This document shows, one piece after another, positions 29,165 to 54,930 of a DNA stretch of 64,000 nt; within the stretch, counting starts at the first letter, position 1, and the number at the start of each line of letters is the position of its first letter. Origin of the DNA: an uncultured Syntrophaceae bacterium. Lineage in GTDB: Bacteria > Desulfobacterota > Syntrophia > Syntrophales > UBA5619. The stretch covers positions 81,701 through 145,700 of the forward strand of contig CAZWTL010000001.1 of NCBI GenBank assembly GCA_964637025.1, written 5' to 3'. Position numbers and translations under genes: made by a program. The notes beneath the pieces were generated by a model. The model saw only the letters and a program-made list of their open reading frames with translations, did not search any database and was not told the origin of the DNA.

Positions 29165-30334
29165 TCACGAAGCGAAGCGGTTGGGGTCCAGGGGCGAAAC
29201 ATCCATGAAGGTCTTTCCGTCGACGATCAGGTCGGCCACGATCTTCCCGGTCACGGGGCTCAGGGCGATGCCGTCCCCCTCGTGCCCCGCGGCGATGAAA
29301 CATCCCTCCAGACCGTTTGCATAGCCGACCAGCGGCAGTCCGTCGGGCGTAAAGGGCCTGATGCCGCCCATGGTGCGGATGATATGGATCGGTCCCAATC
29401 CGGGGACCAGACGCAGGGCGTTTTTGAGGATCTCCCGGATCCCCTCGCGGGTGTTCCTGACCTCGTAGCCCACGAATTCCCGGGTTCCGCCGATGAAGAT
29501 GTTCCCCTTTTCGGTCTGGCTAAGGGAAAGGCCGACCCCGAGTTGAACGGCCCGGCTTTTCGCTCCCTCCGCCCTGCCGGCGTTGTATTTGGCCGCGATG
29601 TAGGAAGCGGACAGCATGCTCCTGGAGATGAAGGGGGCCGCGGGCTCGGTGATCACGATCTGTCCGCGCCGGGGTTGGATCGGCAGATCCAGGCCCGCCA
29701 TCCTGCCGATCAGGGACGCCCATGCCCCCGCCGCGTTCACCACGATCGGCGCGTGGGCCGGCCCCTGCGCGGTCGCCACCCCTTCCACCCGTCCGCCTTT
29801 CGTCAGGTAGCCCGTGACTTCCGTCTTCAGCAGGATCTCGGCGCCCAGCCTCTTCGCGGCCCCGGCAAAACCCAGGTTGAGCTCGATGGGATTCACGTCG
29901 CCGTCCTGGGGGCTGTAGGTGGACGCGATCAGGTGACCCGCCAGACCCCGCTGCATCCGGGAGGCCTCCCGGCGGTCGATGATGTCGACCTGCAGGCCCG
30001 TCCGCTTCTGACGGGCCACGAAATCCTCCATGACCTTCAATTCGTCGGCGGTCTCGATGAGGATCATCCCGCCCTTTTGATGGTATTCGATGTCGTGATC
30101 CAGCTCGTCCCGAAGGCCCTTGAAGAGTTCGGCGCTGGCCAGGGCCAGCCTCAGATGGATCCCGGCGTTCTTGGACTGCAGGAAGATGCCCGTATCGCAG
30201 GCCCCGGAGGCGCCGGAGGCAAAATCCTCCTTTTCCAGCAGCAGGACCTTCAGGCCCCGTTTCGCCAGTTGATAGGCCGTCGAGCTCCCGATGACGCCGC
30301 CGCCGACCACGATCACGTCCGCTTTCCGGGTCAT
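29165..30334 (-). CDS. FAD-dependent oxidoreductase, DAO/sarcosine-oxidase-beta/proline-dehydrogenase-beta-like catalytic subunit
   Basis: Internal ATG of ORF 29165..30577: 'MTRKADVIVVGGGVIGSSTAYQLAKRGLKVLLLEK'. The C-terminal 'FIAAGHEGDGIALSPVTGKIVADLI' fits the DAO family. ATGA overlap with the upstream gene. Confidence 0.85.
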   Translation of the reverse strand: MTRKADVIVVGGGVIGSSTAYQLAKRGLKVLLLEKEDFASGASGACDTGIFLQSKNAGIHLRLALASAELFKGLRDELDHDIEYHQKGGMILIETADELKVMEDFVARQKRTGLQVDIIDRREASRMQRGLAGHLIASTYSPQDGDVNPIELNLGFAGAAKRLGAEILLKTEVTGYLTKGGRVEGVATAQGPAHAPIVVNAAGAWASLIGRMAGLDLPIQPRRGQIVITEPAAPFISRSMLSASYIAAKYNAGRAEGAKSRAVQLGVGLSLSQTEKGNIFIGGTREFVGYEVRNTREGIREILKNALRLVPGLGPIHIIRTMGGIRPFTPDGLPLVGYANGLEGCFIAAGHEGDGIALSPVTGKIVADLIVDGKTFMDVSPLDPNRFAS

Positions 30335-30606
30335 TCTTCGTCCCCCTGGGCCATCTCCTCGATCCTGACCGCGCGGACCGGGGGGCGAAAGGTGGGAGGG
30401 AGAATTTCGGCGGGATCCCGTCCGGCGGCGAGCATGCCGGCGATCAGTTTCCGGCAGGTTCTCCCCTGGCAGAGCCCCATCCCGGCATGGGTTCTCTTCT
30501 TGATCCCCGACAGCGTGGTCGCGCCGTCGCGGATGGCCTGTTCGATCTCTTCCCGGGTCACCTCTTCGCACCGGCACACAAACACCGTACCGTTCTTTTC
30601 ACCCAT
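30331..30606 (-). CDS. BFD-like [2Fe-2S]-binding small subunit
   Basis: Has 'VCRCEEVTREEIEQAIRDGATTLSGIKKRTHAGMGLCQGRTC' (C-x-C...C-x4-C). It overlaps both neighbours. Confidence 0.8.
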   Translation of the reverse strand: MGEKNGTVFVCRCEEVTREEIEQAIRDGATTLSGIKKRTHAGMGLCQGRTCRKLIAGMLAAGRDPAEILPPTFRPPVRAVRIEEMAQGDEE

Positions 30607-31117
30607 GCCGGATTGTCTCCCTTCTGCAGATCGTGCGGACCTCCAGGCAGAACTCCTTGGGAACCTCCACGCCCACCACGGCCGTTCCGTCATGGGCCTT
30701 GCTTTTCCGGACGTGCGCCACCCGTCCGTCCGTCACGTACTCCCCGCTGCGGTTGCCGCAGGGGACGATCCGGCCCTTCGCGGGGAGGGGCCAGTACTCG
30801 TAGGGGAATTCGACCAGAGAGGTGCCTTCCGTGTAGTGGAGATGGACCTTGAAAATCGCCAGACCCGGGCACTGCGCGATGCACGCGCCGCAGCCCGTGC
30901 ACTTGCCGCCGTCCAGGGCCGGCAGGTTGGTGATCGGCTCTCCCACGGCAATGGCGCCGAAGGGGCAGGCCTCCTCACAGGGGTTGCAGGGGATTTCCTG
31001 GACGCACTCGATGACGGCCACCGGCCCCTGTTCCATCCTCTCCCGGCTCGGCATGCCGGGACTGGCCAGGAGCTCCTTTTCGGAAGGGATCCCCGTGTAC
31101 CGGACGCCTCGGTTCAT
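30599..31117 (-). CDS. 4Fe-4S dicluster ferredoxin-like subunit
   Basis: Internal ATG of ORF 30599..31528. Has 'CNPCEEACP' and 'CTGCGACIAQCP'. ATGA overlap with the upstream gene. Confidence 0.8.
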   Translation of the reverse strand: MNRGVRYTGIPSEKELLASPGMPSRERMEQGPVAVIECVQEIPCNPCEEACPFGAIAVGEPITNLPALDGGKCTGCGACIAQCPGLAIFKVHLHYTEGTSLVEFPYEYWPLPAKGRIVPCGNRSGEYVTDGRVAHVRKSKAHDGTAVVGVEVPKEFCLEVRTICRRETIRHG

Positions 31118-32211
31118 GCGGATGCCTCCATCGACAGATCGAGAAGCCGGCCTTTGGCGACCCGGCGTCCCTCGCCGAACGGTCCGGTGCGGAGCGCGTC
31201 CAGCCGCTCCCAGATCGCGGCCTTGCGTTTGCGGGCCTCGTCCGGGTCCAGCAACCCCAGGGCTTCGGCGCAGGCCGTGCCGGCCAGCCGCCCCTCCTCC
31301 AGGGCCGTGCTGGCCTCCTCCACGCCCGAAACGTCGCCGGCGACGTAGACGCCCGGCACCGTGGTCTCCATGTTCAGGTCGTGCTTCGGCACATGGCCGC
31401 CCAGGGCGGGAACAAAGACGAATTCGCAGCCCATGAGCCAGGCGAGCTCCGTCAGGGGGGTGAGCCCCACGGCGAGGCAGACCGTATCGACGGCCAGGCT
31501 CTTTTCCGAACCCGCCACGGGCTGCCACCGGGAATCCAGGGCCACGATCTCCACCGACTCCACCTGGCCGTTGCCGGCCGCCCTTTTCACCGTGTGGGAC
31601 AGATGGATGGGCACCCCGGCCCGCCGGATCTTGGCGGCATGGACCCCGTATCCTCCGATCTGCGGCGCCGCCTCGATGAGCGCCGCCACCTCCGCCCCGG
31701 CCTGCATCAGCTGGTAGGAGACGATCAGCCCCACGTTGCCCGAGCCGATCATCAGCACCCTGCGGCCTGGAAGGACGCGGTTCACGTTGATCATCGTCTG
31801 CGCGGCCCCGGCGCCCATGACCCCGGGGAGTGTGCTGCCCGGAAAGGCCAGGGCGTTTTCCGCGGCGCCCGCGGCGATGACGATCTTTTCGGCCCGCAGG
31901 GACTCCGCCTTGCCGCGGCGGACATAGCCCACGGTCCGGTCGGGAAACAACGCGTAGACCGGGGATTCCAGCAGCACCTCCACGTTCAGGCTGCGGGTCT
32001 CCTCGAGAAGCTGTTCGCCGATGCGGAAGCCGCGGACCCCGGCCCGGTGTTCCCGTGAGCCGAAGAACTTGTGAATCTGTTTGAACAGCTGTCCCCCGGG
32101 CTTGGCGTTTTCGTCGATCAGGACCGCCTGGCCTCCGGCACGGGCCACTTCGATGGCCGCCGCAAGCCCCGCCGGTCCGGCGCCGATCACGGCCGCCTGC
32201 GTCGTCTTCAT
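31114..32211 (-). CDS. FAD/NAD(P)-binding pyridine-nucleotide oxidoreductase subunit (HcnB / OoxA / proline-dehydrogenase-alpha-like)
   Basis: Has 'AAVIGAGPAGLAAAIEVARAGGQAVLIDE...GGQL', a second Rossmann 'VLMIGSGNVGLIVSYQL', and 'GVYVAGDVSG'. Start 32211 forms an ATGA overlap with the upstream stop. Confidence 0.85.
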   Translation of the reverse strand: MKTTQAAVIGAGPAGLAAAIEVARAGGQAVLIDENAKPGGQLFKQIHKFFGSREHRAGVRGFRIGEQLLEETRSLNVEVLLESPVYALFPDRTVGYVRRGKAESLRAEKIVIAAGAAENALAFPGSTLPGVMGAGAAQTMINVNRVLPGRRVLMIGSGNVGLIVSYQLMQAGAEVAALIEAAPQIGGYGVHAAKIRRAGVPIHLSHTVKRAAGNGQVESVEIVALDSRWQPVAGSEKSLAVDTVCLAVGLTPLTELAWLMGCEFVFVPALGGHVPKHDLNMETTVPGVYVAGDVSGVEEASTALEEGRLAGTACAEALGLLDPDEARKRKAAIWERLDALRTGPFGEGRRVAKGRLLDLSMEASA

Positions 32212-32525
32212 GGTTCGTCCGTCCATTTCCCGCGCCCCTGCTGGGTTTCTACGATCATCCCGTCCCTCACCGGGGTCACGCAGGTCCGGACGTTGGGCTG
32301 GCCATCCACGGTCATCACGCAGTCCGTGCAGCGGCCGATGCCGCAGAAAAGCCCTCTGGGGCTTCCGAACCGCGGCGTGAGCCGGAAGACGCGGATGCCG
32401 GCGGCCAAAAGCGCCGAGGCAATCGGCTCTCCCGCGATGGCGGCGATTCTTTCCCCATCCACGACGATGGAGGCGTCCGGCCTCCTGGGATCCTCGCCCA
32501 GGATGGGATGCTGGGTCACTCTCAT
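32208..32525 (-). CDS. [2Fe-2S]-binding small subunit (HcnA / sarcosine-oxidase-alpha N-terminal-like)
   Basis: Has 'IVVDGERIAAIAGEPIASALLAAGI...GLFCGIGRCTDCVMTVDGQPNVRTCVTPV'. ATG 32525 is preceded by GAGGTG. Confidence 0.8.
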   Translation of the reverse strand: MRVTQHPILGEDPRRPDASIVVDGERIAAIAGEPIASALLAAGIRVFRLTPRFGSPRGLFCGIGRCTDCVMTVDGQPNVRTCVTPVRDGMIVETQQGRGKWTDEP

Positions 32526-32605
32526 GAAAAAACGCACCTCGTATTTTTTAAACCGGGGAGATTTACCCCTTCCGGCTTCCTTGTGCAAGCAGATTGTTTT
32601 GTGCC

Positions 32606-33343
32606 TCAGGGCTCAGGGAACCCTTTGCGTTCGAGGCCCGCATGGACATGCCGGATCAGCGTGACCACGTCGAAAACCGGGATCTTGAGCACCTCCTGCA
32701 CGGCGGCGGCATAGGGGGGCATGTTGGTGCACTCCAGCACCAGGGCGCCCATGTCGGGCCGGGATGCGGCCAGCTTCCGTGCCGCCTCGACCATTTCCCC
32801 GCGCACCCGGCGATGGTCCAGGGAGGGTTTCCCCCGGATGAAGGCGGCGGTAAACTCCTCGGCGTCGTCCATCCCCGCCACCACGAGGGGCAGGTCCCGG
32901 ATGCCCACCCCTTCGAGATGCCTTTCGGTCAGAGAGGCCTTGCTGGCCGTCAGAATGCCGACCGCTGCGTCGCGGCCGAGCATGGCGCGGATCATGGGGA
33001 CCTGCAGCAGACTGGAGCTCAACACGGGAATCCGCACCGCATCGGCGAGTTCCCGCTGGAAGATGGCCAGAAAGCCGCAGCTGGTGGCGATCGCCCCGGC
33101 GCCCCCCCTTTCCAGTTCGCGGGCCGCGGCGATGAAGGGTTCGAGGAGCCTGTCGTCGGCCTCCTTCACCACCCTTTGCGGCGAGGCCCCCCGCACCACC
33201 CGATACCGCACCGGAAAGGGAAAGGTCAGGGGATTCCCGATATCCCCCGGGATCCGGGGAAACACCGTATCCAGCATGATGATCCCTACGGCCGGCCCGC
33301 ATGGCGCGGCGCAAGAAGCCGACATCGCCCTTTCCTCCCCCAT
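32606..33343 (-). CDS. Asp/Glu/hydantoin-racemase superfamily protein
   Basis: Two catalytic-Cys blocks, 'AIATSCGFLAIFQ' and 'ALVLECTNMPPY'. The start may be the internal Met-7. Confidence 0.75.
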   Translation of the reverse strand: MGEERAMSASCAAPCGPAVGIIMLDTVFPRIPGDIGNPLTFPFPVRYRVVRGASPQRVVKEADDRLLEPFIAAARELERGGAGAIATSCGFLAIFQRELADAVRIPVLSSSLLQVPMIRAMLGRDAAVGILTASKASLTERHLEGVGIRDLPLVVAGMDDAEEFTAAFIRGKPSLDHRRVRGEMVEAARKLAASRPDMGALVLECTNMPPYAAAVQEVLKIPVFDVVTLIRHVHAGLERKGFPEP

Positions 33344-33360
33344 GAGGCCCCCAAAGTCCT

Positions 33361-34896
33361 TCAGCCGGCTTCGAAGCGGATGCCCTGCGCCAGCGGCAAT
33401 TCATGGCCCCAGTTGATCGTGCTGGTCTGGCGGCGCATGTACTGTTTCCAGGCGTCGGAACCGGATTCACGTCCTCCGCCGGTCTCCTTTTCCCCTCCGA
33501 AGGCGCCGCCGATCTCGGCCCCGGAGGTGCCGATGTTGACGTTGGCGATTCCGCAATCGCTTCCCGCGGAGGAGAGGAAGGCCTCCTCGTAATGGACGCT
33601 TTTCGTGAATATCGCCGAGCTCAGGCCCTGGGGCACGTCGTTCTGCTTCCGGATGGCTTCGTCGATCCGGTCGTACGCGATGACGTAGAGAATCGGGGCG
33701 AAGGTTTCCTCCTTGACGATCGGATATTCGTTTTCGACCTCCATGATCGCCGGCTCGACGTAATGGCCGCCCTCGCAGCCCGGCACGCTGATCCGCCGGC
33801 CGCCGCAGAGCAGCTTGCCGCCGGAGCGTTCAGCCGCGGCGATCGCGCTCAGCATGGATTCGATCGTCTCCCCGTCCACGACGGGTCCCATCAGGATCCC
33901 CTCCTGCAGCGGATGGCCGATGCGGATCTGGCGGTAGGCCGCCACCAGCCTTTCGACAAAGGGCTGTTTGACATCCCTCTGGACGATGACGCGGCGGGTG
34001 GTCGTGCAGCGCTGGCCTGCGGTCCCGACCGCGCCGAACAGGGTCGCCCGGACCGCCATGTCCAGGTCGGCGTCCTCGGCCACGATGATGGCGTTGTTGC
34101 CCCCGAGTTCCAGAATGGTCCTGCCCAGCCGCCGGGCCACCGTTTCGGCGATATGGACCCCCATGGCCGTGCTGCCCGTCATGCTGATCAGGGGGATGCG
34201 CCGGTCGCGGATCATGGCCTCGCCGATGTCGGCCCCCTTCCCGATCAGGAGGTTGAACACCCCGTCCAGGCCATGACGGTCGATCACGGGGGCGATCAGG
34301 CGGTGCACGGCAATCGCGGTCAGCGGGGTGGTCGAGCTGGGTTTCCAGACGACGACGTCGCCGCAGACCGCCGCGATGAGCGCATTCCAGGACCATACGG
34401 CCACAGGAAAATTGTAGGCCGTGATGACCCCCACGATGCCCAGCGGATGCCACTGTTCGTACATCCGGTGCCGGGGGCGCTCGCTGTGCATGGAGAAACC
34501 GTAGAGCATCCGGCTCTGCCCGACGGCGAAATCGGCGATGTCGATCATCTCCTGAACCTCGCCCCGGCCTTCGGCCGCGATCTTTCCCATCTCCAGGGTC
34601 ACCAGATTTCCCAGCGCCTCCTGGTTCGCGCGCAGGACATCGCCGATTTCGCGCACGATCTGGCCGCGGACGGGGGCGGGAACGGTGCGCCATTTCAGGA
34701 AGGCCTCCCGGGCTCTTTCGACCACCTTGCCGTAGTCGTTTGCATCCGCCTGGACGACCGATCCGATGGGCCTGCCGTCGATGGGCGACACGCTGACCCG
34801 TTCCCCGCCGCCGGTCTTCAGCCAGCCGCCGGTGCCGCCTGTCGTGGCGCCGGAATGGATTTTTCCGACGCCGAGCCTCGCCAGAATGTCTTCCAT
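33361..34896 (-). CDS. ALDH7 (antiquitin)-type aldehyde dehydrogenase: piperideine-6-carboxylate / alpha-aminoadipic semialdehyde dehydrogenase
   Basis: Internal ATG preceded by GGGAGGA. Has 'ELGGNNAIIV', 'GTAGQRCTT', and the C-terminus 'GAEIGGAFGGEKETGGGRESGSDAWKQYMRRQTSTINW..LPLAQGIRF'. I recall that C-terminus as almost identical to ALDH7A1. Confidence 0.88.
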   Translation of the reverse strand: MEDILARLGVGKIHSGATTGGTGGWLKTGGGERVSVSPIDGRPIGSVVQADANDYGKVVERAREAFLKWRTVPAPVRGQIVREIGDVLRANQEALGNLVTLEMGKIAAEGRGEVQEMIDIADFAVGQSRMLYGFSMHSERPRHRMYEQWHPLGIVGVITAYNFPVAVWSWNALIAAVCGDVVVWKPSSTTPLTAIAVHRLIAPVIDRHGLDGVFNLLIGKGADIGEAMIRDRRIPLISMTGSTAMGVHIAETVARRLGRTILELGGNNAIIVAEDADLDMAVRATLFGAVGTAGQRCTTTRRVIVQRDVKQPFVERLVAAYRQIRIGHPLQEGILMGPVVDGETIESMLSAIAAAERSGGKLLCGGRRISVPGCEGGHYVEPAIMEVENEYPIVKEETFAPILYVIAYDRIDEAIRKQNDVPQGLSSAIFTKSVHYEEAFLSSAGSDCGIANVNIGTSGAEIGGAFGGEKETGGGRESGSDAWKQYMRRQTSTINWGHELPLAQGIRFEAG

Positions 34897-35034
34897 GTCG
34901 CAGGGTCCTCCCGAATCAGGACGTTTCAGTTTTGAGGGGGAAGAAAGCGGACCGGTCCGGAGAGTCCCCGGATGGCCGAGATCCACAGGTCATGGCCGCT
35001 CCTGTCGAACGCCGTCCGGATCCGCTGTCGGATT

Positions 35035-36936
35035 TCAAGCCGCCTGCCCCTGATCCCGTTTCCGTGTGGTCCACCACCAACCCAGAAAGGCCAGCGTCAT
35101 GCCCAAAGCCGCGATCAGGGTGAGGGGCTGGCTCGCCAGTTCCCGGTGGGCGGCCAGGAGGATCCCCCCCACGGTCGCCGCTGCCATGGCGGCCCTCTCA
35201 AACCCGTTGAGCATCCTGATGAAGAAACCGCTCACCGCCGCGGACAGGAAGGTGACGGAAATGATGATCAGCAGCAGCACGGCCACGGTTTCGAACACGC
35301 CCCCCCGCAGGAGCAGCGCGTGGTTGAAGACGAAGATATAGGGGATCGTGAAGGCCACGATGGCCATCTTGAAGGCCTCGAAGCCCGTCTGCAGCGGCTT
35401 GGCGCCCGCGATGGAGGCGGCGCAGTAGGCCGGAATGCAGACCGGCGGGGTCACTTCGGCCAGGATGGAGAAGTAGAATACGAAGAGGTGCGCCGCCAGC
35501 AGGTTGATCCCCAGGGCCACCAGGGCCGGGCCGCCGATCGTGATGGCGACGATGTAGGCCGGGGTGCAGGGCATGCCCATGCCCAGGATCAGCGAGGTGA
35601 CCATGATCAGCATCATGGCCGGCAGCAGATGGCCGCCCGACCAGTTGGTGATCACCGTGGCGATGCCCAGGGCCAGTCCCGTGTGGGTGACGATGGCGAC
35701 GATCATGCCGGCGCCGGCGCAGGCCAGGGCGATCATGACCATGTTCCTTCCGGCCGACTGCAGGGCTTCCCATGTTTTTCTCGGGGTCATGGCCGTCTTC
35801 TTCTTGCAGAAGCTGATCACGTAGGACATGGCAATGGCCCCCATGGCCGCCATGAAGACCGAAAACCCGGCGATGAGCAGCCCCATGAGTCCGAACAGGG
35901 GGATGAGCAGATAGGAATCCTTGATGATGGTCGGCAGGGGCACCATCATGTCCTCCTCCTTCATCCCCTTGAGGGCGTCCCGGACGGCGATGAAGTGGAC
36001 CCGGATGGCCAGGCTCGTGTAGTAGGCGATCGCCGGCAGAGCCGCCGCCACGCAGATGTCGAGATAGGGAATGCCCGTGATCTCGGACATCACGAAGGCG
36101 CCGGCCCCCATGATCGGCGGCATGTACTGACCGCCGCTGGAGGCAACCGCCTCCACCGCGCCCGCGAACTGGGGTCGGTAGCCCAGCCGCTTCATCATGG
36201 GGATGGTGAAGGTACCCGTCGCGTAGACGTTGGCCGCGGCCACACCGCTGATCGATCCGAAAAAGGCACTGCTGACGACCGCGACCTTGGCTGGACCCCC
36301 CCGGCTCTTGCCGGTCAGACGGCAGGCGAGGTCCGTGAAGAACTTGCCCGTCTGGGTTCCCTCCATGATGGACCCGAAGATGACGAAGAGGGCCACGAAC
36401 GTGGCGGAAATTCCCGTGATGGAACCGTAGATGCCCGAGTCCGTCAGCATGTACTCCATCTCGATCAGTTCGGAGATGGGCAGTGGCTTGCAGTAGAAGA
36501 CGCCTGAAAAATGGGGCGCTGCAAAGACGTAGACGAAAAAGCTGCAGATCAGGATGGTCATGGCGGGGACAACGGCCCTGCGGATCGCTTCGAGGATCAG
36601 GATGATGTTCAGGGCTCCCAGCGCCACCTGAAGCGGCGTCAGGGGATCGACGAATTCAAACCGAGAGCTTAAATCGCCGTTATTGAAAATGATGTAGAGG
36701 GCCGGAACGAGCGACAGGAAGGCCAGGATCCAATCATAAACGGGAATCCGGTCCGGCGCCGATTTCTTGGTCGCCGGAAACAGGACGAAGGCCATCGGCA
36801 GCAGGAAAAGCAGATGGACCCCGCGCTGAATGCGGGGCTGCATGATGCCGAAGGTTGCCGTATAGAGGGCGAAGACCGAAACCGCCGACAACCAGATCCC
36901 GATCGCGTTTTTTTTCCAACCCGATAGTGTTCTCAA
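35035..36936 (-). CDS. TRAP transporter fused permease (4TM/12TM, TAXI-associated type)
   Basis: 633 aa and highly hydrophobic throughout. It lies directly downstream of a TAXI-type binding protein gene. Confidence 0.85.
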   Translation of the reverse strand: MRTLSGWKKNAIGIWLSAVSVFALYTATFGIMQPRIQRGVHLLFLLPMAFVLFPATKKSAPDRIPVYDWILAFLSLVPALYIIFNNGDLSSRFEFVDPLTPLQVALGALNIILILEAIRRAVVPAMTILICSFFVYVFAAPHFSGVFYCKPLPISELIEMEYMLTDSGIYGSITGISATFVALFVIFGSIMEGTQTGKFFTDLACRLTGKSRGGPAKVAVVSSAFFGSISGVAAANVYATGTFTIPMMKRLGYRPQFAGAVEAVASSGGQYMPPIMGAGAFVMSEITGIPYLDICVAAALPAIAYYTSLAIRVHFIAVRDALKGMKEEDMMVPLPTIIKDSYLLIPLFGLMGLLIAGFSVFMAAMGAIAMSYVISFCKKKTAMTPRKTWEALQSAGRNMVMIALACAGAGMIVAIVTHTGLALGIATVITNWSGGHLLPAMMLIMVTSLILGMGMPCTPAYIVAITIGGPALVALGINLLAAHLFVFYFSILAEVTPPVCIPAYCAASIAGAKPLQTGFEAFKMAIVAFTIPYIFVFNHALLLRGGVFETVAVLLLIIISVTFLSAAVSGFFIRMLNGFERAAMAAATVGGILLAAHRELASQPLTLIAALGMTLAFLGWWWTTRKRDQGQAA

Positions 36937-37068
36937 TGAACCCTCTCCATTCGTTTTCCGTTCCGTTTCTTCCTCAGCCGGTGGGGACGCGAACCGGACC
37001 GGGACGGGATGCGGGAAGGGGCCCGCATCTCCATCCGCGATCCTCAGCGGTCGAATCGTTTGCCGACG

Positions 37069-38106
37069 CTACTTCATGAAGCCGGCTTCCCTGTAGAACT
37101 TCTCCGCGCCGGGATGGAGGGGAACGGCGACGTGAAGCCAGCCTTTTTCCGCAATGAAGGTTGCGTTGGCGTTGTTGATCTTGTGAAGTTCGGGAATGTT
37201 CCGGCAGAGGATCTTGGTGATGGCGTAGACGACGTCGTCGGCGACGGCCTTGCCGACCAGGAGTTCGCCGGTGCTCACCACGGTGGGGACATCCTCGGCC
37301 TGACCTTTGTAGGTCCCCTTGTGGATGATCTGATGGCCCGAATCCGTCCCCAGGGTGCCCAGGTCCTTGGCGAGCTTGTCGATGCAGGCGTTGGAGACGG
37401 CCAGAACGACGCTGGGCCGGCTGACGAACATCTCGGTGATCGCGGCGGCCGGCAGGGCCAGATGGGTGAAGACGAAGTCCACGTGCCGGTCCTGGTAGAG
37501 GCTGGTCATGTCGGCGTAGACGGCCTGATGGACCTTCCCGCCGGCCTTCTTGATGGCGTCCAGCGAGATGCCGTAGAAGGCCAGGACATTTTCGATGAGG
37601 GGCAGATCGGAGGTCCCCTTCATGGGCGCGGCCACACTCACGGCCTTGCCGGCCTTGACCTGATCGGCCAGTTCCGCGACTGTCTTGATTCCCTTGTCCT
37701 GGGCCGCCACGAAGTGGACATAGTAGGTTCCGAAGATGCCGCCGATGGCCCGGACATTGGGATTGGGTTTTTCGAAGAGGGGGGCCATGCCGGTGTAGGC
37801 CATCTTGTCCACGAAGGTGATGCCCCATCCGAGATCGTCCTTGCCTCCGGAAACGCGGACCGGATTGACCATGCCGCCCCCGGGGACGACCTTGACCACG
37901 ATCTTGGGCTCCTTCTCCGTGATCATCCGGGCGATTCCGCCGGCCTGGACATACCAGCCCCCGCCGACCCCGCCGGCGACCCAGCTCAGGGTGGTCGGCT
38001 TCAACTCCTCTGCGGCCGACACCGTCTCCGTTCCTGCCGCCATCAGCAGCATCAACGACATGACCACCAGGACAGCAAAACAGCCTTTGCGCAGATATGC
38101 CTTCAT
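37069..38106 (-). CDS. TAXI-family TRAP transporter solute-binding protein
   Basis: Signal peptide 'MKAYLRKGCFAVLVVMSLMLLMAAG'. 'TLSWVAGGVGGGWYVQAGGIARMI' and 'HPGAEKFYREAGF' are characteristic of TAXI receptors. Confidence 0.85.
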   Translation of the reverse strand: MKAYLRKGCFAVLVVMSLMLLMAAGTETVSAAEELKPTTLSWVAGGVGGGWYVQAGGIARMITEKEPKIVVKVVPGGGMVNPVRVSGGKDDLGWGITFVDKMAYTGMAPLFEKPNPNVRAIGGIFGTYYVHFVAAQDKGIKTVAELADQVKAGKAVSVAAPMKGTSDLPLIENVLAFYGISLDAIKKAGGKVHQAVYADMTSLYQDRHVDFVFTHLALPAAAITEMFVSRPSVVLAVSNACIDKLAKDLGTLGTDSGHQIIHKGTYKGQAEDVPTVVSTGELLVGKAVADDVVYAITKILCRNIPELHKINNANATFIAEKGWLHVAVPLHPGAEKFYREAGFMK

Positions 38107-38228
38107 CGTCTCCTCCTCCGTCTCTGTTGTGAAAAAAGTTTCAGTAAAAATGCGCCTCGAACGGTCGTGTCCGCTTCAACCATATTCGGCCGAAAAATTC
38201 AACCGTTCAGATGAGCGATCCCCTCCTG

Positions 38229-39944
38229 TCATTGACCGACCCGCTTCTCGGCCGCCCGGTGCCAGGTGTAGACCGGCGGCAGTTGATCCACCTCCGTCTC
38301 CGAGAGGACGTCCAGGAAAACCGGGCCGTGCTGTGCAAAGGCCTCGTCCAGGCCGCTCTCCAGTTCCGCGGCCGTTCGGATCTCGAGGGCCTTCACCCCG
38401 AATCCTCTGGCCACCATGGCCGGATGTCCCGGGGTAAAATCCACGGACAGGTATTTTTCGTTGCTGTGGAGTTTCTGCAGGCACTTGATCCATCCGAACA
38501 TGCCGTTGTTGAAATGGATCAGCACGGCGGGGATGTTCAACCGGGCCAGGGTTTCCAGCTCTCCGGCGGACATGCCGAGGCTGCCGTCCCCGAAAAGCCC
38601 GATCAACCGCGCGTCCGGCCGGGCGAAGTGGGCCCCGACAACGGCGGGGATCGCGTAGCCCAGGCCGCCGTAGGCCCGGGGGATGAGGAACCGGGAGCCG
38701 TTGCCCTTGAGTTTCAGGTAGCGGGCGGTGTAGGGGGTCGGTGTGCCCGCGTCGGCGATCACCACGGAGACGCCGGGCATCCTCCGGTTGAGAGCGGCGA
38801 TGATCCGCTGAGGCTTCAGCGGGATCGCGTCGGACGCGAACTCGGCCTCGGCGGCCTCCCAGAACCGCCCCCTTTCAACGTTCAGGCGGATGATCCTGTC
38901 CGATCCCGTGCGCCGGGGCGTCCTGGCCCGGATCAGGACCGACAGGTCCTCCATGATCAGCCTGGCGTCGCCGGCGACGCTCAGGGTGTTCTGGTAATTG
39001 TTGCCCAGCATTTCCGGATTCAGATCGATCTGGATGATCTTCCGGTCCGGTCTGCGGGACGGCATCGACCAGTTGATGGTGGAAACGGAGCCCATCTTGC
39101 AGCCCACGTAGAGGAGGACATCGCTCTCCTCGACCGCCTGGTGCGCATGCGGGTGGAATCCGTTGTCGCCGATCACGCCGAGGGCCAGGGCATGGTCGTC
39201 GGCAATCACCCCCTGGCCTGAAATGGTCGTCACCACCGGGATCGCGAGCCATTCCGCGAGATCCGCGATGGCCTGGCCCGCCTGTGAATGGTTGGCCCCG
39301 CCCCCGGCCACGATGATCGGCCTCTCGGCCCGGATGAGGTCATCCGCGGTCTTCTCCAACTCCCCGCGGGCCCCGCGGGTGCGGTAGGCGGGATAGGTCG
39401 CGCACTCCTCTTCGGCGTAGAGGGCGTCCCCGCCGGCGGGAAGCTCCCCGGTCATGACCTCCTTGGGAAAGGCCAGATGGATCGCCCCGGGACGCCCGGT
39501 GGTGGCGATCCGGAAGGCGCGCCGGACCGCTTCCGGGATCTTCCCGGCGCTTTTGAGGACGCTGGACCACTTGGTGATGGAGTCGAAAAGCTTCTGGCAG
39601 TCGAGTTCCGTGATGGTCTGCTTGCCTTCGCCGGCGAGGGCGATGTCGGAGGTGATCAGGATGACCGGGATGGAGGAGGCGTTCGCCTCGGCGATGCCCG
39701 GCACCGAGTAGAGCGGCCCCGCCCCGCTGGGGCATTCGCAGATCCCGGGTTTGTGCGCGAGCCGCGCATAGGCGTCGGCCATGAACGAGGCCGACCGCTC
39801 GTCCCGGGCCAGGATATGCCGGATGGCCGGGGCCGCGTTGTGGAGCGCTTCGTACAGGGGCAGGCTGGTATCCCCGGGAACGCCGAATATCAGCTCCACC
39901 CGGTAGGCCTTCAGCATTTCGACCAATGCCTGGGCGCCGTTCAT
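38229..39944 (-). CDS. Thiamine-pyrophosphate enzyme, acetolactate-synthase-large-subunit-like
   Basis: Has 'MNGAQALVEMLKAYRVELIFGVPGD' and the TPP motif 'GDGSLGMSAGELETLARLNIPAVLIHFNNG'. RBS GGGAGG precedes the start. Confidence 0.85.
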   Translation of the reverse strand: MNGAQALVEMLKAYRVELIFGVPGDTSLPLYEALHNAAPAIRHILARDERSASFMADAYARLAHKPGICECPSGAGPLYSVPGIAEANASSIPVILITSDIALAGEGKQTITELDCQKLFDSITKWSSVLKSAGKIPEAVRRAFRIATTGRPGAIHLAFPKEVMTGELPAGGDALYAEEECATYPAYRTRGARGELEKTADDLIRAERPIIVAGGGANHSQAGQAIADLAEWLAIPVVTTISGQGVIADDHALALGVIGDNGFHPHAHQAVEESDVLLYVGCKMGSVSTINWSMPSRRPDRKIIQIDLNPEMLGNNYQNTLSVAGDARLIMEDLSVLIRARTPRRTGSDRIIRLNVERGRFWEAAEAEFASDAIPLKPQRIIAALNRRMPGVSVVIADAGTPTPYTARYLKLKGNGSRFLIPRAYGGLGYAIPAVVGAHFARPDARLIGLFGDGSLGMSAGELETLARLNIPAVLIHFNNGMFGWIKCLQKLHSNEKYLSVDFTPGHPAMVARGFGVKALEIRTAAELESGLDEAFAQHGPVFLDVLSETEVDQLPPVYTWHRAAEKRVGQ

Positions 39945-49009: not shown

Positions 49010-49534
49010 TCAGCGGTAGCCGCCTTCCTTGGCGTTGTGGATGATCGAGATCAGGTGCCCCGAGGTGTAATCGCCCACGGAGCCGCCGGCAAAGACCAGC
49101 CGGCCCTGCCCCTTGTACACCATCTCATACCGGTGCCGGTCGCTGCCGAAGTAGAACGGGATCCACGCCTTTCCGGTGACATAGGCGCCCTGGTCCGTGG
49201 GCGGGCCGATCAGATCGGTGACCTGCTTCATGCTCATCCCGATCTGGAGCTTCGTGAATTTGCTCCCTGCGGCGGGGGTCCCGGAAATCTCTCCCTCCCA
49301 TCCGTCGATGCCCTTGACGGTCTTGACGTCCTTGGGGGCCTCTGCGGCCGCGGCGGGCTTGGCCGCCTTGTCCGTTTCGGCCTTGGCGGCGGGTTTGGAC
49401 TCCTTTGCCGTCTCCGCTTTCGCGGCGGGCGCTGTCCCGGATGACCCCCCCAGCTTTTGCTGCACCGTCTGGCAGGAGACGAGCAGGAAAACGGAAACGA
49501 TCGCCATGGCTGCAAACGCGTAACGATTGGTCAT
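49010..49534 (-). CDS. Lipoprotein with Ala/Lys/Pro-rich linker and BamE(SmpA/OmlA)-like C-terminal domain
   Basis: Lipobox 'FLLVSCQ', linker 'AAKAETAKESKPAAKAETDKAAKPAAAAEAPK', and 'GMSMKQVTDLIGPPT'. Confidence 0.65.
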   Translation of the reverse strand: MTNRYAFAAMAIVSVFLLVSCQTVQQKLGGSSGTAPAAKAETAKESKPAAKAETDKAAKPAAAAEAPKDVKTVKGIDGWEGEISGTPAAGSKFTKLQIGMSMKQVTDLIGPPTDQGAYVTGKAWIPFYFGSDRHRYEMVYKGQGRLVFAGGSVGDYTSGHLISIIHNAKEGGYR

Positions 49535-49590
49535 GATTCAACCTCCATCCTTGGGTCGTGATCGGGAACACGGGAACCGTCGCGGTTCCC

Positions 49591-50529
49591 CTATTTCCGG
49601 ATTTCCCGGAGTCCGTTGAGGATCTTTTCCTTCCCGGTCAAGGTCTGTTTCCGTTTGGAATCGACGATCACGCAGGTGGGCGTCCCCTGAATCTTGTCCT
49701 CCTTGAGGTAGTTGTTCAGGATCCTGAAGATCGGGGTGATGTCGTACGGGACGATATCGACCTTCCTGTCCTTCAGGAAGGCCTCCATGGACTCCTTGGC
49801 CCGGATCTCCTGATGCGCCGCCTCGAAGAGGGCGCTCCGGGCGGCGACCGCCTGATGCAGCTCCTTCTTGGCGTTGAGCGCCGCGAGAAAATAGCCGGTG
49901 TAGAGAACCGTCTCGCTGTGGACCGGCGCATCGATGAAAAGGACGCGAATGAGGCCCTTGTCGACGAGTTCGCCCACGAGCGCCATCACCTCCGGCTCCT
50001 CGGCCGCGCAGGGCTCGCAAAAGTAATCCGTATAGATGCGGACCTCGACGGCCCCCTTTCCGAAGACGGGCACGGCGGGCTCGGCGGCGAACGCGGGGGT
50101 GGTCGAACCGGAGAAGAAGAGGAGGAAGAAGGCCAGCCCGGCTGCTGCGGCCAGCACGGAAATCGCCTTCCGGTTCGGTTCGAAATTGACCGCGAGGGCC
50201 AGGAAGATCGTGACCGCGAAGCCGAGGCAGTATGGACAGTAGACGCCGCTGTGGATCTGGTAGCCGATCAGGAAGAGCTCCCCGCCGGCCCCGAAGGCGA
50301 GCAGCAGGAGACAGAGGAGATGCTTCCTGAACCAGGCGAGGATGAACAGCATGGCCATGTAGAAGATGCCCATGTGTTTGAGATCGATGCCCAGAATGTC
50401 CCCTTTGAGGTATTTGCAGTAACCCAGGCAGAGCATGTAGGCGACGGTGATGGCGATGCCGACGATCGCCAGCAGCAGGGTGAGAAAACGCCTCTTCCCG
50501 GACAGCCACTTCTTCATGAAATCGGACAC
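49591..50529 (-). CDS. VKOR-like membrane domain fused to a periplasmic thioredoxin/DsbA-like domain
   Basis: About 5 TM spans with 'CLGYC' and 'CPYC', then the soluble part 'VEVRIYTDYFCEPCAAEEPEV'. Start is GTG 50529 or, more likely, ATG 50517. Confidence 0.65.
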   Translation of the reverse strand: MSDFMKKWLSGKRRFLTLLLAIVGIAITVAYMLCLGYCKYLKGDILGIDLKHMGIFYMAMLFILAWFRKHLLCLLLLAFGAGGELFLIGYQIHSGVYCPYCLGFAVTIFLALAVNFEPNRKAISVLAAAAGLAFFLLFFSGSTTPAFAAEPAVPVFGKGAVEVRIYTDYFCEPCAAEEPEVMALVGELVDKGLIRVLFIDAPVHSETVLYTGYFLAALNAKKELHQAVAARSALFEAAHQEIRAKESMEAFLKDRKVDIVPYDITPIFRILNNYLKEDKIQGTPTCVIVDSKRKQTLTGKEKILNGLREIRK

Positions 50530-50781
50530 CTCCCTTGCCAGTGCGTGAATGGCCCCTTCTATCCCTTCCGGCGCGGCATTGTCAAGGGTTTTGATCCCCC
50601 GGAGGCCTGCGCGGCCGCGTCATTGGGGGCGAAGATGCGGACGGCGCCTCCGCGTCACAGTCCCGCTGCCGAGGCCTGTCGGTTCCGGCCGGAAAAGGGG
50701 GCCGGACTCCCCATGCAGGGGCGCGCCGGCCCGATCCCGACGGGCGGGGAGAATCCGGCTTTAAGGTGTGCGGAAAGGCGC

Positions 50782-51462
50782 TCAGGCGATCCGTGCGAGC
50801 CGCATCCAGCTGGTTCGGTCCCAGGAGGGGTTTGCCTCCGCCTCCTCCGTATCGGACCGGATGCCGCATTTGCGTGCAAAATGGCGGTGAAAGACGAGGG
50901 AAGGCGTCAGTTCGGGATGGAATACGGTGGCCAGGACCCCGGGAGACTCGGCCGCGGCGATGAAATCGTCCACCCGGAGCAGGACTTCCACCCCCGCTCC
51001 CACGCTGAGGATCTTGGGGGCGCGGATGAAGGTGAGGGGGATCGGGTTCGGCGAAAGCGCCGGGATCGAGGCCTCGATGGCGAAGCTGTCCAACTGGCTC
51101 CCGAAACTGTTGCGTTCGACCTCGATGTCCATCAGGCCGAGGTGGGGCTTTTCCCCCACGATCGAACGCGCCAGGAGAATCGCCCCGGCGCAGGTTCCCC
51201 AGAGCTTCATCCCTTCATGGAATTTGCGGACGATGGTTTGATCGATGCCGAAGGTGCGAAGCAGGCGCGCCAGGCAGGTGCTCTCGCCGCCGGGCAGGAT
51301 GAGGCCGGACAACCCTTCGAAATCCCGACCCGTTTTGACCCGTCTGGGGGAGACCCCCACCCGTTCCAGGTGGTCCAGGTGCTCGAACACGTCCCCCTGG
51401 AGATCCAGGACCCCGATGGCCTTTTCCGGCAATCCGGCGGTTTCCAATGCAAGGCGGCTCAT
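50782..51462 (-). CDS. pdxT: Pyridoxal 5'-phosphate synthase, glutaminase subunit
   Basis: Has 'IGVLDLQGDVFEHL', 'LILPGGESTCLARLL', 'GTCAGAILLA' and 'FIRAP...ATVFHPELT'. Confidence 0.92.
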   Translation of the reverse strand: MSRLALETAGLPEKAIGVLDLQGDVFEHLDHLERVGVSPRRVKTGRDFEGLSGLILPGGESTCLARLLRTFGIDQTIVRKFHEGMKLWGTCAGAILLARSIVGEKPHLGLMDIEVERNSFGSQLDSFAIEASIPALSPNPIPLTFIRAPKILSVGAGVEVLLRVDDFIAAAESPGVLATVFHPELTPSLVFHRHFARKCGIRSDTEEAEANPSWDRTSWMRLARIA

Positions 51463-51483
51463 CCCATCCGTCCCGTCATGGAT

Positions 51484-52365
51484 CTACCAGCCGCGGCCGG
51501 CCAAGAGCTGTTCCTTGGGAATGGCGGCGATTTCCAGGCCGGGCATGGCCTCTCCGAGACCCATGGAGGCCTCGAGGACCTTGACGGGATCGTTGAAGTA
51601 GGCCGTTGCCTTGACGATCGCCCGGGCGCGTGCGGCGGGCGTCGCCGACTTGAAGATCCCCGAACCGACGAAGATTCCGTCGCATCCGAGCTGCATCATC
51701 AGCGCCGCATCGGCCGGGGTTGCGATCCCGCCCGCAGCAAAATTGACGACCGGAAGGCGGCCCAGCTCCTTCACCTTCAGGGCCAGTTCATAGGGGACCC
51801 CGTTGGCCTTGGCGAAGCCCGTCACCTCCTCCACCGGCATGTTCACAAGCTGGCGGATCTCGCGGTTCATCGTCCTCATGTGGCGGACGGCCTCGACGAC
51901 GTTTCCGGTCCCGGCCTCTCCCTTGGTGCGGATCATCGCCGCCCCCTCCGCGACCCTGCGGAGCGCCTCGCCCAGGTTCCGGGCGCCGCAGACGAAGGGG
52001 ATGGAGAAGCGGGTCTTGTCGATGTGGCATTCCTCGTCGGCCGGGGTCAGGACCTCGCTCTCGTCGATATAGTCGATTTTCAGGGCCTCGATGATCTGGG
52101 CCTCGACAAAATGTCCGATCCGCGCCTTGGCCATGACGGGGATGGAGACGGCCCTTTTGATCTCGGCGATCATGGCCGGGTCCGACATCCGGGCGACACC
52201 TCCGTCCTTGCGGATGTCCGCAGGGACCCGCTCCAGGGCCATCACGGCCACGGCGCCCGCCTCTTCGGCGATCTTCGCCTGTTCGACATTGGTTACGTCC
52301 ATGATGACGCCGCCTTTGAGCATCTGCGCCAGTTGGACGTTCAGTTCATATCGCTTTGCATCCAC
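51484..52365 (-). CDS. pdxS: Pyridoxal 5'-phosphate synthase, lyase subunit
   Basis: Has '[41 protein letters not shown]', '[10 protein letters not shown]', '[18 protein letters not shown]' and '[18 protein letters not shown]'. Confidence 0.96.
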
Positions 52366-52465
52366 GATCAGGTTCCTCCCTGTGCTTCATTAACGAGTCT
52401 AACACCTCTTTTTAGCTCATAAACCGGATCACGTCAAGGACAATTATCAGGCGCGGATCGTCTGA

Positions 52466-52481
52466 AAATCCGGCCGGATTT
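52466..52481 (-). terminator. Palindrome AAATCCGGCCGGATTT downstream of hisF (weak terminator candidate)
   Basis: Perfect 16-nt palindrome 30 nt after the hisF stop. On the minus strand the 3' arm runs into TTTT. The stem is short and there is no long U-tract. Confidence 0.3.
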
Positions 52482-52510
52482 CCGGCCCCGGCGCCGCGGC
52501 CTCCGGACGG

Positions 52511-54856: not shown

Positions 54857-54930
54857 GCGGCTCCTTTTTCCGGTTGTGTTTTCGCCGTGGATCATATTAA
54901 ATTGCCGCATGATCCGCAAGGGAATCGCAT

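Follow-up and report, generated by a model that had tools for sequence, protein, structure and literature searches.

We analysed a 64,000-nucleotide stretch of an uncultured Syntrophaceae genome (contig CAZWTL010000001.1 of assembly GCA_964637025.1, positions 81,701 to 145,700; hereafter the window) and find that ten minus-strand open reading frames (ORFs) between positions 29165 and 39944 form a real, conserved and unstudied catabolic operon, in which known protein families are joined in a new combination. The genes encode a thiamine-diphosphate (TPP) enzyme resembling acetolactate synthase (ALS), a TAXI-TRAP transporter, an aldehyde dehydrogenase of the ALDH7 family, a racemase-like protein and a five-subunit dehydrogenase with flavin and iron–sulfur (Fe–S) centres. 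Across relatives, ALDH7 follows the TPP enzyme, not the dehydrogenase. At slightly less than even confidence, we favour a scheme in which racemase, C-alpha–N dehydrogenase, TPP-dependent decarboxylase and ALDH7 would act in this order, from one operon, on an amino or imino acid of the lysine family. No description of a pathway with this gene set was found in the literature searched, in agreement with an earlier reading of the window made from its letters alone (the sequence-only reading), which had recognised no described pathway combining these genes with an ALS-like TPP enzyme. In order of transcription, the features are:

40053-40025, minus strand: sigma-70-like promoter candidate, TTGACA-17-TACGAT, 10/12 positions matched
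38229..39944, minus strand: ALS-like thiamine-diphosphate enzyme, 571 aa, first gene, with all three TPP_enzyme domains (Pfam)
37069..38106, minus strand: TAXI-family TRAP solute-binding protein, 345 aa (TIGR02122, 176 bits; cut-off 84)
35035..36936, minus strand: fused TRAP permease, 633 aa (TIGR02123, 595 bits; cut-off 321)
33361..34896, minus strand: ALDH7/antiquitin-type aldehyde dehydrogenase, 511 aa (NF050084)
32606..33343, minus strand: PRK07475-subfamily protein of the Asp/Glu-racemase superfamily, 245 aa (NF005679, 318 bits; cut-off 231)
32208..32525, minus strand: [2Fe-2S] Fer2_4 subunit, 105 aa (PF13510, 1.4e-28; SoxA model positions 18-100)
31114..32211, minus strand: FAD/NAD(P)-binding Pyr_redox_2 subunit, 365 aa (SoxA model positions 171-486)
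30599..31117, minus strand: 2x[4Fe-4S] ferredoxin-like subunit (Fer4x2), 172 aa, 18.6 kDa (Fer4 families)
30331..30606, minus strand: BFD-like [2Fe-2S]/SO_alpha_A3 subunit, 91 aa, 10.0 kDa (PF04324, PF17806; SoxA model positions 510-596)
29165..30334, minus strand: DAO-family FAD catalytic (beta) subunit, 389 aa (PF01266, 5e-76)

All ten ORFs lie at the coordinates that the sequence-only reading had assigned to ten co-directional genes, and Pfam and NCBIfam bear out each of its family assignments. Its four overlaps recur unchanged: 4 nt between the Fer2_4 and NAD-binding subunits (32208-32211), 4 nt between the latter and Fer4x2 (31114-31117), 8 nt between Fer4x2 and BFD (30599-30606) and 4 nt between BFD and DAO (30331-30334). 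The very short gaps that it described hold for the last six genes, with 17 nt between ALDH7 and the racemase-like gene and 80 nt from there to Fer2_4, but not for the first three junctions of 122 (TPP to TAXI), 132 (TAXI to TRAP) and 138 nt (TRAP to ALDH7). Start codons were picked to agree with the domain matches, and with starts so fitted a Shine-Dalgarno-like GGAGG/GGGAG motif precedes all ten. The promoter candidate is the sole sigma-70-like site directly upstream of the TPP gene; a sequence scan found no such site within the operon and no minus-strand terminator-like hairpin in the intergenic gaps, the terminator count equalling the shuffle expectation. The complete ten-gene order recurs in a Syntrophus metagenome-assembled genome (MAG; locus L001) at 73-88% protein identity. 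This order and the promoter and terminator scan support the view that the genes act as a single catabolic unit, and the recurrence of the order together with that of sub-modules in many other taxa means that the arrangement is not due to chance. The flanking genes are unrelated to the operon; one, convergent with it, encodes a hybrid-cluster protein, and the other, divergent, a DEAD-box helicase.

We compared gene content across relatives, comprising 80 loci obtained with the racemase (PRK07475) as query and a sample of 400 other genomes of the phylum. ALDH7 is present in seven of the eight genomes or loci other than the window that carry an orthologue of the TPP enzyme (L001, L014, G001, G002, G359, G411 and G414); the exception, where the TPP gene is present and ALDH7 was not found, is the 3.2-Mb MAG G004. 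In G414 the ALDH7 was found first and the TPP orthologue afterwards, as predicted. By contrast, all eight genomes that have a related dehydrogenase cluster without a TPP orthologue also have no ALDH7, although the racemase gene is adjacent in seven of them, the Fusobacteria isolate being the one without it beside the cassette. The other members of this group are Vibrio EA2, Koleobacter, Oceanobacillus, the Oscillospiraceae MAG, G005, G409 and G410 (genome labels for the eight: G003, G005, G406, G407, G408, G409, G410 and G412). G409 and G410 even encode a near-orthologous TAXI protein (65% identity), racemase and five-subunit dehydrogenase, yet no ALDH7 or TPP orthologue, and the eight include the genomes of the near-orthologous TAXI/racemase/dehydrogenase loci L031 and L036.

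The link between ALDH7 and the TPP enzyme extends to other gene arrangements. Two genomes of the phylum sample, G188 and G359, have both, and ALDH7 directly adjoins the TPP gene in L014 and G188. In G188, an unrelated GIDA-like FAD oxidoreductase and a transporter with 11 transmembrane segments stand in place of the proline-dehydrogenase-like complex and the racemase; the resulting set of FAD oxidoreductase, TPP enzyme, ALDH7 and transporter covers the proposed scheme with no step missing. In G321, the same pair of orthologous TPP gene and FAD-oxidoreductase gene is followed by TAXI-TRAP genes and by a molybdenum aldehyde oxidoreductase where ALDH7 would be. Since ALDH7 adjoins the TPP gene in these other arrangements and the molybdenum enzyme substitutes for it in G321, the patterns indicate that the product of the TPP enzyme is probably an aldehyde, to be oxidised by ALDH7 or a substitute. 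They likewise indicate that the dehydrogenase would deliver a 2-oxo acid or ketimine, which other organisms may process differently. The sequence-only reading had suggested that the TPP enzyme might act on a resulting 2-oxo acid. Adjacency and co-occurrence make the enzyme the likely decarboxylase that feeds ALDH7, and not a late addition.

The GIDA-like type of cluster, which we call type II, was observed in L091, L095, L117 and L118 as a conserved trio of TPP orthologue, FAD oxidoreductase (~423 aa) and 11-segment transporter. The oxidoreductase belongs to no NCBIfam family; of solved structures it matches only MnmG, distantly, and its names in the Atlas are generic. The transporter matched no Pfam family. 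In L117, genes for a 2-oxoacid:ferredoxin oxidoreductase come after the trio.

By model score and residues, the aldehyde dehydrogenase of the window is a true ALDH7, apparently of the piperideine-6-carboxylate (P6C)/alpha-aminoadipate semialdehyde (AASA) type, as had been proposed from its antiquitin-like C-terminus. It passes NF050084, the NCBI equivalog for L-piperidine-6-carboxylate dehydrogenase, with 782 bits against 730, matches human ALDH7A1 at ~1e-156 and bacterial Pcd at 6e-167, and shares GEVQE, QRCT and the C-terminal PLAQGI with all 23 relatives aligned. In ALDH7 enzymes, Glu121, Arg301 and Thr303, which surround the catalytic Cys302, pair with the amino group and the carboxyl group of AASA; the affinity of plant ALDH7s for omega-aminoaldehydes is low, with millimolar Km, and ALDH7 enzymes also oxidise betaine aldehyde and further aldehydes (PMC11362210). 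TPP-linked ALDH7s are polyphyletic and interspersed with ALDH7s whose genes adjoin class-III aminotransferase (LAT-like), AmaA-like DAO or OCD-family genes elsewhere in the phylum, neighbourhoods that look like lysine catabolism. This polyphyly and the identity of the key positions rule out that the TPP-linked ALDH7s are a diverged clade with altered substrate residues.

From its family and gene neighbourhood, we propose that the TPP enzyme is a 2-oxo-acid decarboxylase. It scores under every NCBIfam cut-off, the best model being biosynthetic ALS TIGR00118 (365 bits against 538), and reaches 286 bits on the AruI model, whose cut-off is 500. We therefore rejected the enzyme as an ALS, biosynthetic or catabolic, all ALS models being under cut-off, and as glyoxylate carboligase or AruI, both of whose cut-offs it misses; it was also rejected as Xsc, of which no model stood among the 25 families listed. 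Among solved structures, BbmA is its best match (245 bits), and the papers searched held nothing relevant on BbmA or CsmA. Orthologues with 61-90% identity are common in Desulfobacterales, where flavoenzyme and transporter genes are always adjacent, and close relatives carry the Syntrophales label. The wider ALS-like clade, annotated 'IlvB / thiamine pyrophosphate-binding protein', has over 1,600 clusters in the database (E <= 1e-150).

The dehydrogenase is best described, on domain matches, as a bacterial and further-split version of the archaeal alpha-beta-gamma-delta proline dehydrogenase (PDH) design. Its Fer2_4, Pyr_redox_2 and BFD proteins are collinear on the sarcosine-oxidase alpha (SoxA) model, occupying the three successive segments listed above, and therefore represent one SoxA-like alpha subunit cut into three ORFs. 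Fer2_4, with the motif C61-X4-C66-X2-C69-X12-C82, is the equivalent of HcnA, of the OdhC gamma subunit and of the SoxA N-terminus. The Pyr_redox_2 protein has matches in 1Y56_A (residues 110-259) and in 2GAG_A, a SoxA alpha subunit, and corresponds to the core of a SoxA/HcnB/PDH alpha subunit. The BFD protein has the motif C11-X-C13...C46-X4-C51, with a spacer exceeding the 15-20 residues quoted for the alpha-beta-gamma group, whose motifs are C-X4-C-X2-C-X11-12-C in gamma and C-X-C...C-X4-C in alpha (PMC4575208); alpha and the BFD module form a single protein in the three-subunit relatives, whose clusters are otherwise orthologous. The DAO subunit has its best solved match, over full length, in 1Y56_B, the beta subunit of Pyrococcus horikoshii L-proline dehydrogenase PDH1 (1.9e-56), which upholds the earlier placing of the complex among the proline, D-hydroxyproline and opine dehydrogenases and HcnABC. 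On the AmaA L-pipecolate oxidase model it reaches 55 bits, with a cut-off of 600. For beta subunits and racemase-adjacent DAO proteins alike, the NCBIfam scores for ThiO, DadA and SoxB lie too near one another to tell D- from L- or imino-acid specificity, and a plasmid search with the DAO subunit returned only 'FAD-dependent oxidoreductase' at <=37% identity.

Fer4x2, with eight cysteines in two cluster motifs and its gene between those of the alpha core and BFD, is the only real addition to the enzyme, and it appears to occupy the place of the archaeal gamma subunit. The sequence-only reading had counted more Fe–S modules than in known versions. We reject this excess because BFD is normally the C-terminus of alpha and Fer4x2 sits where archaeal gamma sits. 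Among the 120 matches listed of 991 homologues, Fer4x2 proteins carry generic or bacterial-MAG names only. One of the matches listed, P0115 (271 aa), is a fusion of Fer4x2 to the BFD/SO_alpha_A3 subunit and so supports joint action of these two small subunits. The unnamed cassette Fer2_4-NAD-Fer4x2-BFD-DAO is widespread among anaerobes. Its gene order is repeated in Koleobacter methoxysyntrophicus, the Fusobacteria isolate and a metagenome contig (L081-L083), and the five-subunit enzyme stands beside the racemase in MAGs of Tepidanaerobacteraceae (L009), Oscillospiraceae (L054) and Syntrophaceae (L036). Three-subunit forms, with catalytic subunits 43-49% identical to that of the window, occur in Desulfobacter, Desulfobacterium, Desulfobacula, a Geopsychrobacteraceae MAG, Vibrio sp. 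EA2, Oceanobacillus and Virgibacillus. Desulforapulum autotrophicum HRM2 shares with Desulfospira joergensenii the gene order GntR, TPP, TAXI, TRAP, beta, gamma, alpha, racemase; genes for GntR and a TauE/SafE sulfite-exporter-family protein lie just upstream of the orthologous cluster of Desulfospira joergensenii (L116, 7481-9001). In L082 and L080, the cassette or a DAO gene comes with a gene for the imine deaminase RidA.

The PRK07475 protein is proposed, from its family and two conserved cysteines, to be an amino or imino acid racemase. Neither Cys89 nor Cys205 varies among 91 homologues, and in about half of the 80 loci the gene lies within 10 kb of a DAO-family dehydrogenase gene. Assignment as CuyB was rejected (42 bits against a cut-off of 190), as was EutA, for which there was no match. 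In the ESM Atlas, once its own family is set aside, the eukaryotic Alma-type 'DMSP lyase' (dimethylsulfoniopropionate lyase) family is among the nearest structural neighbours (TM 0.86), and hydantoin racemases reach 0.69. The bacterial clade may be a sister group of the Alma lyases, for which reason the protein could be a lyase instead of a racemase.

For the TAXI protein, the nearest solved structure is the glutamate/glutamine binder 1US4. The glutamate contacts of VcGluP are replaced (W51, M79, I96, F125, T127/Y128, T214 and H215); in an alignment of ~25% identity, the contacts Y45, S75, Q93 and E125 of VcGluP and TtGluBP correspond to W51, M79, I96 and T127-Y128. A glutamate-type binder was accordingly rejected, these conserved ligand contacts not being kept. 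The pocket-equivalent residues are uncharged and aromatic, and they are almost identical between clusters with and without the TPP gene. This near-identity suggests that both kinds of cluster may share one ligand class, which argues against different substrates.

In the scheme that we favour, (i) the substrate would be imported by the TAXI-TRAP system, whose family membership is secure and whose ligand is not glutamate. (ii) The two-cysteine PRK07475 enzyme would invert the alpha-carbon, letting the common L-form enter a stereospecific flavoenzyme. (iii) The five-subunit dehydrogenase, the architecture of which is clear, would oxidise the C-alpha–N bond to a 2-imino/2-oxo acid or cyclic ketimine, passing electrons through FMN and Fe–S centres to the NAD(P)/FAD subunit or a ferredoxin-type carrier. 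(iv) The ALS-like TPP enzyme would decarboxylate the 2-oxo acid to an aldehyde, as gene neighbourhood and co-occurrence suggest, and (v) the aldehyde would be oxidised to the acid by a dehydrogenase that belongs to the ALDH7 family.

Two substrates suit this sequence of steps. L-lysine or pipecolate, which we favour, would pass as the D-form to delta-1-piperideine-2-carboxylate, in equilibrium with 6-amino-2-oxohexanoate, and further to 5-aminopentanal and 5-aminovalerate. It is preferred because (i) the tight pairing of racemase and dehydrogenase suits an abundant L-amino acid feeding a D-specific enzyme, (ii) racemase and ALDH7 co-occur in 12 phylum genomes from 7 genera, with ~1.8 expected by chance, and (iii) the TAXI pocket is uncharged and aromatic. 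Lysine metabolism is also indicated by AMA-like gene sets in G058 and G161. Alternatively, 2,6-diaminopimelate would be converted to 2-amino-6-oxopimelate, AASA and 2-aminoadipate. As the TPP-linked ALDH7s are interspersed among those of the lysine-type neighbourhoods and identical at the AASA-binding positions, and as omega-aminoaldehydes are poorly bound, an omega-carboxy aldehyde such as AASA is favoured, and AASA as the aldehyde points in turn to diaminopimelate, through decarboxylation of 2-amino-6-oxopimelate. The diaminopimelate route thus fits the canonical ALDH7 substrate better and has less need for a racemase.

Several observations weigh against the order of steps that we favour. 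The Arg and Thr that bind the AASA carboxylate are kept in ALDH7, which disfavours 5-aminopentanal. L-Proline dehydrogenase, the nearest solved relative of the catalytic subunit, oxidises the C5–N and not the C-alpha–N bond. In Oceanobacillus and Bradyrhizobium, the cluster has an aminotransferase gene immediately next to that of the TPP enzyme, as would fit a 2-oxo acid formed by transamination later in a pathway. Four further TPP-positive genomes of the phylum, with type-II TPP enzymes, have no ALDH7, and the co-occurrence counts are phylogenetically non-independent, several of the genomes being MAGs.

Conversion of lysine to 5-aminovalerate by an oxidase, a decarboxylase and an aldehyde dehydrogenase has been described only as an artificial pathway (PMC7900509). 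The operon might encode a natural, O2-independent counterpart, with a racemase independent of pyridoxal phosphate (PLP), a five-subunit D-amino/imino-acid dehydrogenase whose electron output would suit anaerobes (NAD or, via Fer4x2, ferredoxin), a dedicated decarboxylase and ALDH7; we regard this as possible, with more doubt than assent. The same doubtful standing applies, for both taken together, to its products, 5-aminovalerate from lysine or pipecolate or 2-aminoadipate from diaminopimelate. We know of no description of a route of this kind from diaminopimelate to 2-aminoadipate.

The sequence-only reading had instead proposed that pipecolate is dehydrogenated to P6C and oxidised to 2-aminoadipate. 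In its fullest form, D/L-pipecolate or another cyclic imino acid is imported, racemised to the L-form and oxidised at C6–N to P6C/AASA, which ALDH7 converts to 2-aminoadipate; transamination by an enzyme encoded elsewhere then allows the TPP enzyme to turn 2-oxoadipate into glutarate semialdehyde. Clusters lacking TPP and ALDH7 would be proline-specific versions, whose pyrroline-5-carboxylate (P5C) is handled by ordinary enzymes. We judge this pathway unlikely, although much speaks for it. The ALDH7 is, by model score and residues, a seemingly bona fide P6C/AASA dehydrogenase, the catalytic subunit has its closest relative in the beta subunit of archaeal L-proline dehydrogenase, and the cassette genes run alpha-gamma-delta-beta as in Thermococcus, where a racemase gene is likewise adjacent. 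A ring imino acid would fit a TAXI pocket that is aromatic and uncharged, an AmaA-like oxidase adjoins ALDH7 in G325 and G269 (the G325 locus also having a PRK07475 racemase and an OCD gene), and the aminotransferase genes of Oceanobacillus and Bradyrhizobium lie where the later transamination would lead one to look.

However, two steps of this pathway, those of the aminotransferase and of a second aldehyde dehydrogenase, have no gene in the operon. The near-orthologous TAXI/racemase/dehydrogenase clusters of L031, L036 and Vibrio EA2 lie in genomes without ALDH7 and TPP orthologue, and their TAXI pockets are almost the same as that of the window, so that co-occurrence is explained only by assuming different substrates for near-orthologous transporters. 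The ALDH7–TPP link also persists where an unrelated FAD oxidoreductase replaces the PDH-like complex. Furthermore, tblastn with two OCD-family queries found no OCD-family gene in the genome, DpkA-type reductases not being covered by the search; with no OCD-family gene and no AmaA-type oxidase, to judge from the 55 bits of the DAO subunit, the classical pipecolate route is not encoded. Of the earlier proposal, the canonical ALDH7 and the PDH-like enzyme thus stand. The supply of P6C to ALDH7 by the dehydrogenase is weakened because genomes with the dehydrogenase cluster and no TPP orthologue have no ALDH7, which tracks the TPP enzyme. An imino-acid substrate is possible, more likely through a 2-ketimine than through P6C.

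Another N-substituted or unusual amino acid could be the substrate, the candidates being arginine or ornithine, 2-aminoadipate or 2-aminopimelate, a sulfonated or sulfonium amino acid, and a secondary amine of the opine kind. ALDH7 would then oxidise a non-canonical aldehyde, and the PRK07475 protein might be an isomerase, or an Alma-type lyase that removes a leaving group. Three-subunit relatives resemble opine and D-hydroxyproline dehydrogenases, the Alma family is among the structural neighbours of the PRK07475 protein, and ALDH7 enzymes accept betaine aldehyde and other aldehydes. The TauE gene of Desulfospira, the split TPP-enzyme gene pair beside the racemase in Bradyrhizobium, and the marine or halophilic distribution (Desulfobacterales, Vibrio, Oceanobacillus, Virgibacillus) point the same way. 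We nevertheless consider such a substrate distinctly improbable. The AASA residues of ALDH7 are fully conserved, the TPP-linked ALDH7s are interspersed among those adjoining aminotransferase, AmaA-like or OCD genes, racemase and DAO genes stay tightly paired in distant clusters, as one expects of a racemase feeding a stereospecific dehydrogenase, and Pfam and NCBIfam identify no opine synthase, arginase or desulfonating enzyme among the operon genes. Finally, it is very improbable that two or three independent modules (TPP enzyme and transporter; ALDH7; racemase and dehydrogenase) merely share orientation, since, although the three gaps of 122-138 nt could hold internal promoters and the modules are found separately in other genomes, L001 keeps the ten-gene order, TPP, TAXI, TRAP, dehydrogenase and racemase genes are contiguous behind GntR in HRM2 and Desulfospira, no internal promoter- or terminator-like sites were found above chance, and TPP enzyme and ALDH7 co-occur strongly.

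The favoured order of racemase, dehydrogenase, decarboxylase and ALDH7 shares elements with several known systems. The archaeal PDHs (PdhA/F/X/B of Thermococcus profundus; PDH1/PDH2 of P. horikoshii) have the same DAO-type beta and SoxA-like nucleotide-binding alpha subunits. Their gamma subunit is ferredoxin-like and of ~19 kDa, and delta has ~8-10 kDa; the window subunits of 18.6 and 10.0 kDa are likened to them by position and size. The window order NAD, 2x[4Fe-4S], BFD, DAO equals the alpha-gamma-delta-beta gene order of the Thermococcus alpha-beta-gamma-delta enzyme, and in T. litoralis the L-proline dehydrogenase genes are clustered with a racemase gene (PMC4364671). In contrast to the archaeal systems, the Fer2_4 domain is a separate ORF of 105 aa, so that there are five subunits and no single alpha; the host is a mesophilic, strictly anaerobic bacterium; the racemase is of the Asp/Glu and not the proline-racemase superfamily; and the companions are ALDH7 and a TPP enzyme and not P5C metabolism, a context that does not point to proline.

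LhpBEF, OdhABC/OoxAB and HcnABC are built from the same three blocks, with the two [2Fe-2S] motifs seen in the window enzyme. The hcnABC order, gamma-alpha-...-beta, is that of the window. Three-subunit versions replace the five-subunit one in the orthologous clusters of HRM2, Desulfospira and Vibrio. In the window, however, alpha is split and Fer4x2 inserted, in place of three subunits with BFD fused to alpha, and the operon has no hydroxyproline genes (deaminase, proline-racemase-type epimerase) and no opine genes. An analogy is offered by the L-hydroxyproline pathway, where an epimerase precedes a D-specific dehydrogenase and an aldehyde dehydrogenase acts later. The Pseudomonas AMA pathway (Alr, AmaD/AmaC, DpkA, AmaA, AmaB) shares the logic of racemase, DAO-family D-dehydrogenase, ketimine and, finally, an ALDH7 (AmaB). 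Unlike that pathway, the window has no AmaA-type oxidase (55 bits against 600), its genome yielded no OCD-family ketimine reductase in a search that did not extend to the DpkA type, its racemase is PLP-independent, and its TPP enzyme has no AMA counterpart. The order of oxidation, ALS-like TPP decarboxylation and aldehyde dehydrogenation is that of P. aeruginosa DauA/AruI/KauB and of the engineered RaiP/KivD/PadA. The window differs from the former in a TPP enzyme under the AruI cut-off (286 against 500 bits), and from both in a heteromeric dehydrogenase with Fe–S centres, an aldehyde dehydrogenase of the ALDH7 family, an anaerobic host and TAXI-TRAP uptake.

The racemase, DAO and TPP genes occur together again in paralogous clusters with 25-45% identity, in G359, G170, Bradyrhizobium and Oceanobacillus. 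Clusters L093 (G359), L094 (G170), L097 (G161) and L098 (G058), with 33-50% identity, comprise racemase, TAXI, TRAP and a monomeric SoxB-like DAO protein and look like a sister pathway for a related substrate. L093 and L094 also encode a TPP enzyme, and G058 and G161 have a separate DAO/OCD/ALDH/ALDH7 cluster besides. In Bradyrhizobium ganzhouense (L080, 4465-13769), the racemase gene lies with genes for a 2-hydroxyacid dehydrogenase, RidA, an aminotransferase, an ALS-like TPP enzyme, a DadA-like DAO protein, GntR, a split TPP-enzyme pair and an SDR protein. The split pair, which we take to be sulfopyruvate-decarboxylase-like, has a weak TPP_enzyme_N match in its first half (180 aa), the only part scanned; the whole resembles a catabolic island for a sulfonate or unusual amino acid.

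The operon is patchily distributed within the phylum. The sample of 400 contains 6 genomes with a TPP orthologue, 27 with ALDH7 and 26 with the racemase family, and none of its 13 genomes of the same order has any of the three. The locus stands almost unchanged in metagenomes of bioreactors, biogas fermenters and wastewater, drawn from at least eight studies, and all listed runs labelled RNA-Seq had flat depth and behaved as DNA contigs. A digester strain in run X16 has a single-base insertion at 33347, inside the 17-nt ALDH7/racemase spacer, and many synonymous-looking differences along the operon, the genes being intact, as in strain-level variation. Outside the window, contig C7 of the same genome (~49469-56407) has further TAXI-TRAP genes, grouped with those for an RpiR-type regulator and a class-III aminotransferase; this second cluster could serve uptake and transamination of an omega-amino acid such as 5-aminovalerate or gamma-aminobutyrate.

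If the proposed pathway is correct, functions would be assigned to (i) the PRK07475 'aspartate/glutamate racemase family' proteins, (ii) the ALS-like 'IlvB / thiamine pyrophosphate-binding protein' clade and (iii) the five-gene flavo-Fe–S cassette, for which about 1,000 homologues of the ferredoxin-like subunit exist in anaerobes. The four-subunit design of archaeal proline dehydrogenase would then be common in bacteria, and lysine-type amino acids, or else the cell-wall amino acid diaminopimelate, would have an additional anaerobic route. Such compounds matter in digesters and marine sediments, where the turnover of protein and necromass feeds syntrophs and sulfate reducers, and the enzymes may be useful for O2-free production of 5-aminovalerate or 2-aminoadipate. 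Whether the model is right or wrong, the locus is a well-conserved, unstudied catabolic module, and its cultivable carrier Desulforapulum autotrophicum HRM2 makes testing possible.

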